Shown here in pieces: positions 11,076 to 17,900 of a stretch of DNA of 64,000 nucleotides (position 1 is its first letter; every line of letters starts with the position of its first letter). The notes beneath the pieces are model-generated. The model was not told where the DNA came from and did not search any database. It worked only from the letters and a program-made list of their open reading frames with translations. This DNA is from Adineta vaga (Eukaryota; Animalia; Rotifera): NCBI GenBank assembly GCA_021613535.1, contig CP075492.1, positions 8,197,653-8,261,652 of the forward strand. The letters are read 5' to 3'. Position numbers and translations under genes: made by a program.

Positions 11076-13418
11076 ATGTTTTCTCGTTCGAATCTACTTC
11101 TTCAGGAATTATTAAGAAAGAATTCATCTCGAAATTTATCATTTAAACAAATTAGAGACATAAAACCCATTCTTACTCGAAATCTTGCTTGGTTTAGTCG
11201 ACAACCGATCAAACAAAATTTTGGTATGTATAAAGAGTTGTACAATATACCTGTTCCTTTCAATTAAGATTATTTTTTTAAATATAAATAGGTGCTAAAT
11301 TAAAACGACGGCTAAGAAATTTTCTTATTGTAACGGTTGTCGGTGCTGGTAGTTATTATGGTTATCGTAGTTACAAAAACCATAGATGGTCAAAGGAAAT
11401 GTTGGAATCTGATCAAACAATTGGTACAAAACCTCGAATTGTTGTCCTTGGAACAGGTAAATCAATAATCAATTGTTTATTCGATATAGCGAGAATGTAT
11501 TGTAGGATGGGGTGCTGTACCACTCTTAAAACATTTGGATAATCAAAAATATGAAGTCGTTTGTGTATCACCACGAAATTATTTTTTAATGACACCTCTA
11601 TTACCATCCGTTAGTGTTGGAACCGTCGAAACTCGAACAGTCATTGAATCTATTCGTTCACTTGTTGGACCTCGAGTGAAATATGTCGAAGCACATTGTG
11701 TTGATATCGATCCGAAAACTAAAACAATTACATGTAATAGTGATGGTTCAAATCTTGTAGCTCGTGGTGATGATGTTAAAACAGTAATTAAACCATCGAA
11801 ACGTGAAGGAGGTGCATCTTCACGAATTATTAAAGATTCAGGTAACAATGAGACATTCTTTATTTCTTTCTAAATAGAATTCATTTGAATTTAGCACGAA
11901 CTCGACCACAATTTGAAATGAAATATGATATACTGGTTGTTGCTATTGGTTCCGAAAATAATACATTTAATATTCCTGGCGTAGAAGAACATGCACATTT
12001 TTTGAAAGAACTTCTCGATGCTCGACGTATTCGTTCGGCTATTAGTGATGCATTTGAATCAGCAATGACACCATCACAAACAGAAGAAGAAAGAAAACGT
12101 CTTCTTCATTTTGTTGTTGTTGGCGGTGGACCAACCGGAGTTGAATTTGCTGCAGAGGTAAGATCGGAACAAGACGTATCTTTCTTTACATAACTAACGA
12201 TACTCGAGAAAAGATAGTTGAAATGTAGAATTTCTTCTCTCTCATATTTTGTTTATGAAAAGAAATCATTATTTAGCTTGCTGATTTGGTTCGTGAAGAT
12301 CTACATCATTATTTTCCACGACTAGTTGCTCAAGATGTGAAAATTACTTTGATCGAAGCACTAGATCATGTATTATCGATGATGGTTTGTTAATAATATA
12401 TTGATCAATTTTTTTTCTTAAAAACTCGTTTTTTTCTCCCTCCATGTAGGATAAACAAATTAGTGATTATACGGAAAAACATTTTCATCGTGAAAATATC
12501 GATGTCTTAATGAATACATTTGTAAAAGCAGTTAAACAAAATGAAGTTGTTATACAATTTAAAGGTTCAAATGAATTGACATCTATTCCATGTTCTATTG
12601 TCGTATGGGCAACAGGAATCAAAGCACGACCTTTAACGAATCGAATTCGCGAAATTATCGGTTTGAAAAGTCAAACTAATCGTATGGGTATTCTTACGGA
12701 TCGATATTTGCGTGCTAAAGGTGTCGAAGATGGTTCAATTTTTGCTATTGGTGATTGTGCTACTATTGAACAAGTTAAATTAGTTGATCAAATTCAATCA
12801 TTATTTGAAGAAGCAGATACACAACATCGAGGAGCACTTGACCTACAACAATTTAAATCATTAGTTGAACGTAAAATTATAGAATTTCCACAAGTATGAT
12901 TATCAATGAAAAACTCCTTATCTAACCTTTCGCTTTCTTTTTAGCTTGAGATTTTTTCAAAACAAATTGAAAAAACTTTTCAAGAAGCTGATAAAAATAA
13001 ATCAGGTTTTCTTACACTTGCAACTCTTCATTCTGCACTTGAAAAAGCTGATAAGAAAAACCGTGCTCTACCAGCAACAGCACAAGTTGCATCTCAAGAA
13101 GGTCGTTATATCGCTGATTTACTCAATCAATTACCTAGTTTAACCGTAGCTGATTTTCAACAACAAAATCTCAAGCCATTTCGTTATAAACATATGGGTT
13201 CATTAGCATATGTTGGTGGTGATTCTGCTGTACTTGATTTTACTGGAACAAAACCTCTTCTTGATTTCTTTAATTTACAACCATTATCCGGTCGAAGTGC
13301 CGCCTATCTATGGAAGTCATTTTATTTTACTGAAATGTTTAGTGGACGCACAAAAACTTTACTTGCATTTGATTGGCTTCGTACACATTTGTATGGACGA
13401 GACATAAGTCGTTACTGA
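11076..13418 (+). CDS. Type-II (alternative, rotenone-insensitive) NADH dehydrogenase, NDB/NDE-type, with EF-hand-like insertion; 8 exons
   Basis: N-terminal presequence-like exon (ORF 11076..11267). First dinucleotide-binding motif IVVLGTGWGA. Second motif HFVVVGGGPTGVEFAAE, which matches NDH-2. Insertion with Ca-loop-like FQEADKNKSGFLTLATL. C-terminal YVGGDSAVLDF...WKSFYFTEMFS. Introns of 47-127 nt. Confidence 0.8.
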
Positions 13419-13673
13419 ATACTCAATTTTTCTCATTTACTTCTTCTTAGAGAATGTAGAATCCCTCCATTGTCGCATGAATTTAGTTTCTGTTTCGTTC
13501 TCTTTTTTATACGGATATATATATATATATACCAGCTTGTTTTCCTACTAATAATGACACTATTATTTACACAAATAAATCTCCTAGTCCTTTTTCTAAT
13601 TTATCGTTTGGTTATTTCATTGAATATATTAAACAAATGAATTTCTCAATTTTCTTATAGATTATTAATCAAC

Positions 13674-14198
13674 ATGGATCTGAGTATGGTAAACAATGAT
13701 TATTATTTATCTGGTATGGCTGCATTAGTTGGTGATATCGATAGTAAGAAATCACCTTGTATAGTTTATACATATAGTACATGTTTGCTTAGAACAGTTA
13801 ATGATCATGTTACGTGATGGTCGTACATTGATTGCTTACTTACGAAGTCTTGATCAATTTGGTAGATAAAATCAATGATAATGATAATGATAACTTATTA
13901 ATCTTTTCCAGGTAATCTTGTACTTCATCAGGCATTTGAACGTATTTGTATTGGTCGACAATATGCTGATATTCCTCGTGGTTTATTTGTTATTCGCGGT
14001 GAAAATGTTCTACTTATTGGTGAATTAGATTTTCATCAGCCAATACGTGTTCCTTTGGTAGAAGTGACAATTGAAGAAATACTTAAATTACAAAAAGAAG
14101 ATATTGAAAAGAAGGAACGAATAGAAAAAGCTCGACAGAAAGCAATGCTCGAACATGGTTTAATTGATGAAGGAAATCCAATTGAAGAACATTATTAA
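13674..14198 (+). CDS. LSM1: Sm-like protein LSm1; 3 exons (13674-13745, ~13796-13868, 13919-14198)
   Basis: Sm-fold motifs RDGRTLIAYLRSLDQFGNLVLHQAFERICIGRQYADIPRGLFVIRGENVLLIGELD closely match LSm1. Acidic and basic C-terminal tail follows. Confidence 0.75.
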
Positions 14199-14372
14199 AT
14201 CGAGGAAAAAAAGAAACATTTAATAAGCGTTTTTTTAGTTTGATGATTATAAATTTCATTATTCTCATTTTTTTTTCAACTATTTACAAAGATAGAATGA
14301 TCGGTGCAGATATGTTGTTTTCTTTTTTTTCTTGTTTTTCGATGTTATATTGATCAAAAGAAGTTTTTAGAT

Positions 14373-16270: not shown

Positions 16271-16829
16271 GAATTTCTTTATCGAAAGTTTCTTTTTTTT
16301 TTCTTTTATACATATTTTTCTGTTCATTTATTCCATATGTTGTTGTTATTCATTCTTATTACGTATATATATATATAGAATAAAAAAATATTTTCTTTTT
16401 TTCGTTTCTCGTATTGAGTATATATCTTCATAGATCGAGCACGAATAAGTTAATTTAAGTATTGCTCAAAATTCACTTTGTTTATTCGTATTTGCATCAA
16501 CCCGAGTACTTGACGATAATTCACAGATGGAGGAGATCTGTTACACGAATTTGAGCATTGAAAACATCTGAATATTCAACTGGTAGATCCTATCAGAATT
16601 CAACAAGAATATACTCGGTTTTGTTGAATGAGATATACCGTCCTTCAACATTTAAAGGTATTCATTGAGTATCATCGTACTTAATTGAGAACGAAGAAAC
16701 TCCATCTACTTTCGAAAGAGGTCGGTAGATGTTTTTCCTTAAAATAACCGATTATTGGTGTAACTAAAAGAAATATATCATAAGAAACGAGCGTTTCGTT
16801 TCGTTTCATTTACCTAATAACAAAAAAAA

Positions 16830-17343
16830 ATGGTTTGTGATGATTGTAAGTATTACCTTCTGATCTTTTGAAAATGTGAGGATAAACTTTCTTTTAGGTC
16901 AGAAAAAAGTGGGCCGTATTGCTACTCAAGATGTTTGGAAAAGTATGTTGAATCTATTTTCTAACTAATTTTTGTAATTTCTACATTTCAGATGGTTCAC
17001 GCAATACCGTTGGTAAAGAAATTCATTCTCAGAAAACAATATGTCATTTCACTCTTCTCTTATAGAAAGTGGTGGTAAAAAACTAAATGAAAATAAATTA
17101 CTATCAGGAAAATCTTCACGGTATGTGTTTCGATTATTTTATTGACAAATTCTTTATTATTATTCTTATTCAAATAGATACAGTCCATATACAACAAAGT
17201 TTACAAAATGTAAACTATGTAAATCAACTATTCATCAACCGGGCAGCTCATATTGTCAAGGTTGTGCTTATAAATTAGGCATATGTGCTATGTGTGGTGT
17301 AAAAGTTTTAGAAACAAAAAATTACCGTCAATCTGCTGTTTAA
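16830..17343 (+). CDS. CRIPT: Cysteine-rich PDZ-binding protein CRIPT; 5 exons with 47-57 nt introns
   Basis: Spliced product MVCDDCQKKVGRIATQDVWKDGSRNTVESGGKKLNENKLLSGKSSRYSPYTTKFTKCKLCKSTIHQPGSSYCQGCAYKLGICAMCGVKVLETKNYRQSAV matches CRIPT along its whole length, including the C-terminal PDZ-binding tail. Confidence 0.8.
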
Positions 17344-17411
17344 ATTCGATTTTTATTTACTTTTGTAATTATGTAATAATACAAGATCTTTATTATTTTT
17401 TCAGATAAATA

Positions 17412-17900
17412 ATGTCGGATGAGACAGCAAAAGCTCAAACGGCACATCCAACTGAAGATACAATCTTCGGTAAAATTGCTCGAAAAGAAATCAAGGTTGA
17501 TTTACTTCATGATGATGATCAGGTCGGTTTTTTTACATTGAGAAAAAGAAAAGAAAATATTCAATGTTTAGTGTGTTGCATTTCATGATATAAGTAAACA
17601 AGCACCAAAACACTTTTTAGTTATTCCAAAAGAACCAATTACACAACTATCGAAATGTACACCATCACATGAAAATGTATTGATATTTGATTGTATTTTG
17701 TACAAAAGAGTTGACATTAGATTTCTGTTTAGTTACTTGGCCATTTATTGATTGTCGCTGCTCAAGTTGCGAAACAAGAAGGTATGGATGCAGATGGTTA
17801 TCGTTTAGTTATTAACAATGGACGAAATGGTGGTCAAAGTGTCTATCATCTTCATATCCATGTACTTGGTGGACGACAACTTGAATGGCCACCAGGCTAA
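17412..17900 (+). CDS. HINT: Histidine triad nucleotide-binding protein (HINT1-like); 3 exons
   Basis: Motifs [42 protein letters not shown] and histidine triad [17 protein letters not shown]. Confidence 0.8.

Follow-up and report, generated by a model that had tools for sequence, protein, structure and literature searches.

Does a run of five closely spaced genes in Adineta vaga, a bdelloid rotifer, represent polycistronic transcription that is resolved by spliced-leader (SL) trans-splicing, or the compact packing of independently transcribed genes? The question is natural in this organism, as bdelloids trans-splice a 23-nt leader, the only one known from the group, onto more than 50% of their mRNAs. 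SL trans-splicing in the group has been documented since 2005 (Pouchkina-Stantcheva and Tunnacliffe 2005), and the naming of rotifers as an SL trans-splicing group in the original prediction for this locus was thus well founded, A. vaga being a bdelloid. We refer to the whole analyzed stretch, 64,000 nt of contig CP075492.1, as the window.

All five genes lie head-to-tail on the plus strand, and their models can be closed using 22 introns, each of them GT-AG and 47–119 nt long. As identified with Pfam, they are NDH2, an EF-hand-bearing alternative NADH dehydrogenase (11076–13418, 7 exons, 645 aa), LSm1 (13674–14198, 3 exons, 141 aa), PAN2N, a protein with only the N-terminal domain of PAN2 (14373–16270, 9 exons, 482 aa), CRIPT (16830–17343, 5 exons, 100 aa) and the HIT-family gene HINT (17412–17900, 3 exons, 127 aa). 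The PAN2N and HINT models are identical to the A. vaga proteins UJR09091.1 (I4U23_013338) and UJR09093.1 (I4U23_013340), respectively. The order and identities agree with those originally predicted, as do, exactly, the four stop-to-ATG spacers of 255, 174, 559 and 68 nt. The cluster is flanked by RPB2 and ACE, both on the minus strand. The divergent RPB2/NDH2 intergenic region (10767–11075), the presumed promoter of the first transcription unit proposed below, contains a block (11025–11050, GAATGCACATGTTTTCCGTTTTTGGA) that is conserved in A. ricciae.

Both A. ricciae and Rotaria share with A. vaga the order RPB2(-)/NDH2/LSm1/PAN2N/CRIPT/HINT/ACE(-). Across genera the short spacers stay short: the NDH2-LSm1, LSm1-PAN2N and CRIPT-HINT spacers, 255, 174 and 68 nt in A. 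vaga, measure 102 and 133, 85–92 and 70–82 nt in relatives, giving ranges of 85–174 nt for LSm1-PAN2N and of 68–82 nt for CRIPT-HINT across five taxa. Intron sizes, in contrast, change severalfold, as does the PAN2N-CRIPT spacer, which is 351 nt in A. ricciae, 559 nt in A. vaga and about 2000 nt in Rotaria. At the duplicate (ohnologous) locus of A. ricciae, CRIPT and HINT2 are still adjacent, 115 nt apart, and CRIPT is itself a downstream cistron, 55–60 nt behind a PPIase gene. This locus presents further junctions of 55–131 nt with YAG just before each ATG, while the place after its LSm1 copy is taken by an unrelated F-box/MFS gene. As CRIPT and HINT are tightly linked in Adineta, in Rotaria and in both ohnologous copies, the pair would predate the bdelloid genome duplication.

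In line with the original prediction, each short spacer contains a poly(A) signal followed by a motif resembling a 3' splice site. The NDH2 signal is an AATAAA at 13574–13579, in a context (ACAAATAAAT..CTAGTC) common to an environmental bdelloid. For LSm1, the hexamer scan of the spacer yielded two candidates, ATTAAA at 14194–14199, which overlaps the stop codon, and AATAAG at 14222–14227. Within the 68-nt CRIPT-HINT spacer the only poly(A)-signal-like hexamer is AATAAT at 17375–17380, 24 nt before the G of the HINT acceptor; it reads AATAAA in the other four taxa, and in all five AATAA(A/T) lies 20–25 nt upstream of that acceptor as the sole such signal. The five-taxon alignment of this spacer shows an invariant 9-mer, TTTCAGATA, 6–7 nt before the ATG, with the remainder diverged. 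The long spacer is built differently: an AATAAA 3' of PAN2N (16379–16384) is followed by a variable remainder (16385–16829), the presumed promoter of a second unit, which ends just before CRIPT in a (GTTTC)n-ATTTACCTAATAACAA block conserved in A. ricciae. Beyond HINT, the signal scan found ATTAAA/AATAAA at 17984–17994 and, on the minus strand, the AATAAA of the convergent ACE gene at 18022–18017. The HINT and ACE 3' ends thus probably overlap.

A weight matrix derived from the cluster genes' 22 cis acceptors served to score the acceptor-like strings near the start codons, with random 40-nt windows for comparison. The highest score, 10.6 (P about 0.004), belongs to the LSm1 candidate, ttcttatag|ATT (13652–13660), whose string ends 13 nt ahead of the ATG; Rotaria and environmental taxa retain a TAG|ATTAT-type site there. 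The HINT candidate, TTTCAG|ATA (17399–17407), scores 6.8 (P about 0.05) and is invariant in five bdelloid taxa. Its string, ttttttcag, ends 7 nt before the ATG rather than the 10 nt originally given, while the distances of 13 nt for LSm1 and 2 nt for PAN2N stand. The PAN2N proximal site, gtttttag|AT (14363–14370), scores only 0.8, not above chance; it is kept as YAG|AT in most taxa and is AAG in one, and cDNA contigs read through it. A conserved element in the same spacer (ACAAAGATAG..GTGCAGATATGTTG, 14286–14318) offers two candidate distal PAN2N acceptors, with AG at 14290–14291 and 14308–14309. Upstream of NDH2, a site scoring 5.0 (P about 0.13) is not conserved. For CRIPT, the matrix scan found no acceptor within 40 nt of the ATG in A. 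vaga or A. ricciae; in Rotaria a strong one (score 9.2) lies 22 nt before the ATG. In 8 of 9 genes AT directly follows the candidate acceptor; among the cis acceptors it does so in 2 of 22 (Fisher P = 5e-5). As the heptamer TYAGATA is not enriched across the window (30 found, 33 expected), the signal resides in position and conservation and not in motif density. Such strings should nevertheless not be taken as a mark of operons, as was originally proposed: they also precede ACE and, at the duplicate locus, the LSm1 copy and the MFS gene, which have long upstream regions or belong to divergent pairs. This is to be expected when more than half of all mRNAs are trans-spliced.

Evidence at the RNA level comes from seven contigs, RNA-derived by appearance, from seven public runs or samples and two assembly pipelines; all belong to related bdelloids and none to A. 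vaga itself. In the bridging contigs every intron is precisely removed at the A. vaga junction positions, while the spacer is retained. One contig (L013) spans NDH2-LSm1-PAN2N and another (L014) NDH2-LSm1, these two being from two SRA runs; L128 and L129 each span LSm1-PAN2N, L011 spans CRIPT-HINT, and L131 covers PPIase-CRIPT-HINT2 of the duplicate locus. The read-through across spacers that polycistronic precursors entail is thus seen for the short spacers, as bi- and tricistronic cis-spliced RNA in relatives. None of the contigs found crosses from PAN2N to CRIPT. Two of them, L012 and L129, stop about 10–25 nt past the orthologue of the PAN2N AATAAA at 16379, and L011 has 6 nt ahead of the CRIPT ATG. 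The 5' end of L128 falls exactly at the predicted LSm1 acceptor boundary, and that of L012, a PAN2N cDNA contig with 44 nt of genomic sequence upstream of the ATG, at most 1 nt from the more upstream of the two distal PAN2N sites (14290–14291). L011 continues past HINT into ACE, the convergent gene, a merge that the overlap of the HINT and ACE 3' ends would explain. Since overlapping transcripts become merged in de Bruijn assemblies, RNA continuity is all that a bridging contig can prove; the downstream mRNA need not stem from it. Among these sequences we also noted an odd HINT-spacer-HINT contig (L127), which may be chimeric, an Illumina adapter at the end of L014 and homopolymer frameshifts in L012.

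As the long spacer is variable and bridged by no contig, we favor two SL-resolved polycistronic units over one, and we give this reading of the A. vaga cluster a probability of roughly 0.6. The first unit would start in the RPB2/NDH2 intergenic region, run through NDH2, LSm1 and PAN2N and end at the AATAAA at 16379; the second, made up of CRIPT and HINT, would have its start within the 559-nt spacer between PAN2N and CRIPT. Within each unit, the signal in the spacer (13574 for NDH2, 14194 or 14222 for LSm1, 17375 for CRIPT) would direct cleavage and polyadenylation of the upstream mRNA, and the 23-nt bdelloid leader, trans-spliced onto a YAG|AT acceptor, would supply the capped 5' end of the mRNA that follows. 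The predicted acceptors end at 13660 (LSm1), at 14291, 14309 or 14370 (PAN2N) and at 17404 (HINT), and the leader, GGCTTATTACAACTTACCAAGAG, would accordingly join at 13661, at 14292, 14310 or 14371, or at 17405. As no more than 20–25 nt separate the CRIPT-HINT poly(A) signal from the acceptor, the sites of cleavage and of trans-splicing would all but adjoin. This reading supposes that A. vaga behaves like its relatives and that internal promoters between the cistrons are absent. The 68-nt spacer would leave little room for an independent promoter, while those of 255 and 174 nt could house one.

The main competitor is independent transcription of the five genes in a compact genome, each from a promoter within or overlapping its upstream neighbor. 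The bridging contigs would then stem from transcripts that read through poly(A) sites, or from UTRs that overlap and were merged in assembly, and the acceptor motifs would be either sites of ordinary leader trans-splicing in monocistronic outrons or initiator-like elements. Several observations agree with this. The joining of HINT to convergent ACE in L011 demonstrates that merging occurs without an operon, acceptor-like sites precede non-clustered genes, and bdelloid mRNAs are commonly trans-spliced whatever their position. The 44 genomic nucleotides upstream of the PAN2N ATG in L012 and the conserved LSm1-PAN2N element, which could be a promoter or start site, point in the same direction, and operons have not been reported from rotifers. 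The AATAAA-N20–25-CAGATA geometry could also fit a TATA-like box and initiator, the AATAAA lying about 25–30 nt before CAGATA. Against this, the 68–82-nt CRIPT-HINT spacer, whose only poly(A) signal is 20–25 nt from the acceptor, is so short that HINT could have a promoter of its own only within CRIPT. The bridging RNAs are fully cis-spliced on both sides of the junction in seven independent runs or samples, including a three-gene contig and the duplicate locus, whereas none of the contigs bridges the one long spacer, and the short spacers keep their small size between genera while introns and the long spacer change severalfold. We therefore consider independent transcription unlikely, though it retains appreciable weight.

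A single five-gene unit driven from the RPB2/NDH2 intergenic region, as first envisaged, would accommodate the five co-directional genes enclosed by opposite-strand neighbors, the strong acceptor before Rotaria CRIPT and the downstream position of CRIPT behind the PPIase gene at the duplicate locus. We judge it improbable, given the taxon-dependent length of the PAN2N-CRIPT spacer, the ending of PAN2N cDNA contigs 10–25 nt after AATAAA and the start of the CRIPT-HINT cDNA 6 nt before the CRIPT ATG, and given that both Adineta species have the conserved (GTTTC)n block instead of an acceptor within 40 nt of that ATG. Less probable still, indeed scarcely credible, is that the bridging contigs are chimeric assemblies or genomic contamination, and as such silent on transcription. 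The possible chimera, the adapter end and the frameshifts mentioned above could be cited in its favor, yet genomic DNA would keep its introns, the contigs retain none, their spacers are collinear with the genomic orthologues, and the result recurs in all seven runs or samples and both pipelines. The idea that the adjacency of LSm1 and PAN2 is a functional pairing in mRNA decay fares poorly, as the PAN2N protein has the PAN2_N WD40 as its sole domain, without the UCH and exonuclease parts, and at the duplicate locus an unrelated gene comes after LSm1. Nor do the five genes form a functionally coherent mRNA-decay cluster, NDH2, CRIPT and HINT being functionally unrelated.

For the leader itself, SL RNA genes of the form GAG|GTAAATGATC (GAG|GTAAAT donors) were recovered in 105 environmental loci. 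This search was anchored on the known leader, and leader variants could not surface in it. No SL gene lies within the window, no leader was found next to cluster genes among the loci examined or joined to a cluster acceptor in a read or contig, and a combined SL and HINT scan of JGI contigs gave 0 matches. Leader-to-exon junctions in environmental contigs begin with AT in five of six cases, a tiny sample (n = 6) of which three are internal to contigs. The YAG|AT context of the cluster matches these few recovered junctions.

Under the two-unit reading, the cluster shares with the SL2-type operons of Caenorhabditis elegans its polycistronic precursors, the coupling of 3'-end formation to downstream trans-splicing and a content of mostly housekeeping genes of mixed function. 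The roughly 80 nt that separate signal from acceptor at NDH2-LSm1 come close to the nematode intercistronic region of roughly 100 nt. For their downstream cistrons, nematodes use an SL2 family reserved for this purpose together with a U-rich element. Bdelloids, in contrast, have one known leader, and the CRIPT-HINT junction is much tighter than nematode ones. The SL operons of chaetognaths and tunicates (Ciona, Oikopleura) are closer, with co-directional genes, very short intercistronic distances and a single leader class, no operon-specific leader being known. There the upstream poly(A) site almost adjoins the acceptor, with 3 nt between the two in the chaetognath RPS14-PCNA pair (PMC2481426); here the CRIPT signal precedes the HINT acceptor by 20–25 nt. 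The present case differs in the wider NDH2-LSm1 gap, in its phylum, Rotifera, and in that we infer leader addition. Monocistronic SL trans-splicing in bdelloids (Pouchkina-Stantcheva and Tunnacliffe 2005) shares the organism group, the 23-nt leader and acceptors near the ATG; that study, as cited in other papers, did not establish operons. The acceptors described here lie 20–90 nt downstream of a neighbor's poly(A) signal, and in related bdelloids the neighbors are joined on spliced RNA.

Operons in rotifers have been listed as not determined (PMC2481426) and as not reported (PMC7986045). The broader proposition, that bdelloids possess genuine SL-resolved operons, the first for the phylum, that these are old and that a distinctive YAG|AT(A) acceptor context marks trans-splice sites, stands in our view at about even odds. 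If true, bdelloids would be another animal lineage with operons, which would be relevant to the question of whether any lineage with a spliced leader readily gains operons, and their asexual, formerly tetraploid genome would make them a test case in which an operon can be set against its own duplicate. Gene predictors fuse or mis-extend the cluster genes, as in a 215-aa CRIPT-HINT fusion model in Rotaria, and annotation and expression studies of bdelloids should account for polycistronic transcription and SL acceptors.

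Five plus-strand genes at 11076-17900 could be modelled cleanly, with 22 GT-AG introns (47-119 nt) in all. By Pfam they encode NDH2 (11076-13418; 645 aa, with Pyr_redox_2, an EF-hand pair and NDH2_C), LSm1 (13674-14198; 141 aa), a PAN2-related protein with the PAN2 N-terminal WD40 domain only, here called PAN2N (14373-16270; 482 aa), CRIPT (16830-17343; 100 aa) and HINT (17412-17900; 127 aa). The five identities and the stop-to-ATG spacers of 255, 174, 559 and 68 nt in the original prediction were exact. The minus-strand neighbours are RPB2 upstream of the cluster and ACE downstream. 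At every residue, the HINT and PAN2N models match Adineta vaga UJR09093.1 (I4U23_013340) and UJR09091.1 (I4U23_013338), respectively. This identifies the window as belonging to the bdelloid rotifer A. vaga, in keeping with its ~31% G+C and ~50-nt introns.

Past its WD40 domain, PAN2N has a ~150-aa tail lacking any Pfam domain, and Pfam detected neither UCH-like nor exonuclease domains in the protein. This truncation seems to be shared by bdelloids in general, since annotations of A. ricciae, A. steineri and several species of Rotaria also have a 480-487-aa form. The NDH2 gene has introns and is conserved bdelloid-wide. It encodes an alternative (type II) NADH dehydrogenase into which an EF-hand pair is inserted; to our knowledge, this enzyme is missing in most animals. 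The element (A)GAATGTAGA(A/C) in the NDH2 3'-UTR (13440-13462, ~25-35 nt past the stop) is kept in Adineta and environmental bdelloids (loci L002, L013 and L015) and could be a regulatory-protein binding site on this mitochondrial-enzyme mRNA. Elsewhere in the window, two convergent sets of long ORFs (30400-33500, plus strand; 34250-37250, minus strand) look like paralogous copies of one large repeat-domain protein, which by its peptide pattern may be major-vault-protein-like. The tandem plus-strand ORFs at 44700-50700 suggest a locally expanded gene family, because a YNQPKF-type motif starts each of them.

The order RPB2(-)/NDH2/LSm1/PAN2N/CRIPT/HINT/ACE(-) is common to A. ricciae and several Rotaria assemblies, despite much larger Rotaria introns. 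Across the taxa compared, the PAN2N-CRIPT spacer varies from 351 to ~2000 nt, in contrast to the other three, which remain short: 102-450 nt for NDH2-LSm1, 85-174 nt for LSm1-PAN2N and, in five distinct taxa, 68-82 nt for CRIPT-HINT. When the latter was aligned over the five taxa, the sole long invariant block was TTTCAGATA, 6-7 nt upstream of the ATG, and upstream of this block stands AATAA(A/T)..GAT, with the end of the hexamer 20-25 nt ahead of the acceptor G. Since this spacer has no poly(A)-signal-like element other than AATAA(A/T), the CRIPT 3' end is predicted to lie essentially at the HINT acceptor. A check for poly(A) signals in the spacers had been proposed, and a signal followed by an acceptor was found at this junction, at NDH2-LSm1 (AATAAA at 13574, then TAG/ATT ending at 13660, plus strand) and at LSm1-PAN2N (plus strand: ATTAAA on the LSm1 stop and AATAAG at 14222, the conserved tandem element ACAGATAG..GTGCAGATAT at 14286-14318, and TTTTTAG/AT).

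Public annotation contains CRIPT-HINT fusions or an upstream extension of HINT through the spacer (proteins P0157 of Rotaria sp. Silwood1, 215 aa, and P0014, P0207 and P0209 of R. socialis, 181-182 aa; the 131-aa HINT model of locus L001). The P0157 model splices from inside the last CRIPT exon to the TTTCAG/ATA site, and such models are probably mis-annotations arising from the tight junction. The PAN2N-CRIPT spacer holds three of the four exact window copies of TTTCGTTTC (16400-16408, 16794-16812), which was set aside as a promoter motif, its one-mismatch matches being mostly T-rich low-complexity sequence. Directly upstream of the CRIPT ATG, a (GTTTC)n-ATTTACCTAATAACAA block, kept in A. ricciae, may be an element of a promoter or a 5' UTR. 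Rfam over 10700-18100 gave one sub-threshold snoRNA match only, so that the 559-nt spacer contains no RNA gene of a known family.

The RNA evidence should be read as coming from public contigs of bdelloid relatives, not of A. vaga, which we compared junction by junction with the A. vaga intron positions. In these contigs the introns are spliced out where A. vaga has its junctions and the inter-gene spacers are retained, LSm1 of contig L128 being the exception as to splicing. L013 (Logan SRR22100226) runs from NDH2 through 102 nt to LSm1 and through 133 nt to the PAN2N start, and L014 (Logan SRR22100213) matches its NDH2-LSm1 part. L129 (JGI 3300056962) joins fully spliced LSm1 through 92 nt to fully spliced PAN2N, and L128 (JGI 3300056981) links the same genes, but its LSm1 is spliced only in part, as one intron is still present and the second junction falls in a gap. 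L011 (JGI 3300030611) contains CRIPT, an 82-nt spacer and HINT, and L131 (Logan ERR4329568), from the duplicate (ohnologous) locus, contains PPIase, 60 nt, CRIPT, 103 nt and HINT2. These bridging contigs are sense-strand, cis-spliced RNAs across two or three genes. Polycistronic RNA, as the original prediction expected, was thus found in relatives over NDH2-LSm1-PAN2N, LSm1-PAN2N and CRIPT-HINT, but PAN2N-CRIPT is crossed by none of the contigs found.

The contig ends are also relevant. L012 and L129 stop 10-25 nt past the AATAAA downstream of PAN2N, while L011 begins 6 nt ahead of the CRIPT ATG. L128 begins with AG/ATTAG.. exactly at the predicted LSm1 acceptor and L012 at most 1 nt from the first distal PAN2N site; such ends would be expected where leader-joined and precursor reads diverge, stopping assembly. 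Two contigs deserve further mention. L127 (JGI 3300030738, 1-971, intronless) carries a HINT CDS, an 86-nt spacer ending GATAAAGATCT..TTTCAGATAGAT and a second, ~90% identical HINT CDS, and either reflects a tandem duplication of HINT in which the junction was copied too, or is chimeric between two alleles. L014 ends, right after an A-rich genomic stretch, in the Illumina adapter AGATCGGAAGAGCACACGTCTG (1712-1734), so adapter contamination is present in some assemblies.

Bdelloids trans-splice a single 23-nt spliced leader (SL), GGCTTATTACAACTTACCAAGAG, to >50% of their mRNAs (PMC3795323; PMC1925144), and an acceptor-like motif shortly upstream of the ATG is therefore expected at many bdelloid genes and is no proof of an operon alone. 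We scored acceptors with a weight matrix from 22 local cis acceptors and set each against the top scores reached by random 40-nt windows. The LSm1 site, 13 nt upstream of the ATG, scored 10.6 (P ~0.004 vs random), the HINT site, 7 nt upstream, 6.8 (P ~0.05) and the unconserved NDH2 site 5.0 (P ~0.13). The proximal PAN2N site, 2 nt upstream, is conserved and scored 0.8, not above chance, and the 40 nt scored upstream of the CRIPT ATG held no acceptor. The acceptor-like strings originally noted were thus recovered in place for LSm1 and PAN2N, whereas that of HINT lies at 7 rather than 10 nt and that of PAN2N scores at chance. The heptamer TYAGATA, with 30 occurrences in the window against 33 expected, was dropped as a general motif; as it is not enriched, the acceptor case rests on position and conservation. 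AG/AT context is present at the candidate sites of 8/9 genes vs 2/22 cis acceptors (Fisher P = 5e-5), and AT starts five of six leader-exon junctions from environmental contigs, a very small sample, too small for firm statistics. As an operon sign, the acceptor motifs do occur in the short spacers, but strong sites are also found outside tight clusters: at ACE, at the duplicate-locus LSm1 copy, with a 338-nt divergent spacer upstream, and before one gene of a 75-nt divergent pair. The ACE site (minus strand, 20307-20330) reads cttttttag/atacaATG, in YAG/ATA context, and the upstream neighbour is ~700 nt off; ACE is probably a trans-spliced monocistronic gene.

The 23-nt leader is absent from the 64-kb window and from all fetched loci, no SL RNA gene lies within the window, and a targeted search for the leader fused to the HINT start gave 0 matches in JGI contigs. 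A 19-nt leader scan led to 105 loci, and the 169 matches in fetched loci comprise 163 SL RNA genes and six leader-exon junctions, all six from other loci, with no leader-joined sequence for the cluster genes. Because assemblers probably clip the short leader as a tip, little weight attaches to the lack of it in contigs. In environmental contigs (L025, L027, L028, L032, L035, L037, L038 and many others), the SL RNA genes of bdelloids frequently form head-to-head pairs ~160 nt apart, as well as multi-copy arrays. Differences among their intron starts (GTAAATGATC.., GTAAAGATCGCC.., GTAACGATCGG.., GTAGATATTTGT..) suggest that they belong to several gene families with a common 19-nt leader core, this core being the search pattern. 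The leader minus its first 4 nt, followed directly by ATG-containing sequence, also occurs inside longer contigs (L121 ~3505, minus strand; L093 ~711; L026 ~302), and these occurrences may stem from retrocopied trans-spliced mRNAs or from chimeric assembly.

The duplicate locus of A. ricciae contains LSm1, 169 nt and F-box/MFS, and further along MFS, 131 nt, PPIase, 55 nt, CRIPT, 115 nt, HINT2 (163 aa), 111 nt and a 126-aa gene, followed by ACE(-), PID(-) and GPCR(-). CRIPT-HINT adjacency thus holds for both copies; in this one CRIPT, too, occupies a downstream position, after a TAG/ATAT site. PAN2N is missing from this contig and LSm1 precedes an unrelated gene, which, together with the domain content of PAN2N, led us to reject the proposed shared function of LSm1 and PAN2 as a rationale for the cluster.

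The best-supported model, at a probability of about 0.6, is that of two candidate SL-type operons, NDH2-LSm1-PAN2N and CRIPT-HINT. Nematode operons have longer spacing, and the NDH2-LSm1 junction is alike. With its predicted near-adjacent poly(A) and acceptor sites, CRIPT-HINT is more like the operons of chaetognaths and tunicates, in which the poly(A) and trans-splice sites abut (PMC2481426). The main rival, a tentative reading that we consider distinctly less probable, is that the genes are independent and their transcripts read through or overlap. Assemblers do merge overlapping transcripts, as L011 extends into the convergent ACE, the HINT and ACE poly(A) signals being opposed within ~30 nt. 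Alternatively, the AATAAA-N20-25-CAGATA geometry might reflect a TATA-like box and an initiator, and promoters could fit in the 174-nt and 255-nt spacers. A single operon of all five genes is unlikely, given the long and uncrossed PAN2N-CRIPT spacer, and it is very unlikely that bridging contigs spliced at A. vaga intron positions are assembly artefacts.

A 2008 survey entered rotifer operons as "ND" (PMC2481426), and our literature search found no later report of them. If confirmed, the two candidates would be SL-resolved operons in a phylum previously known for the leader alone.
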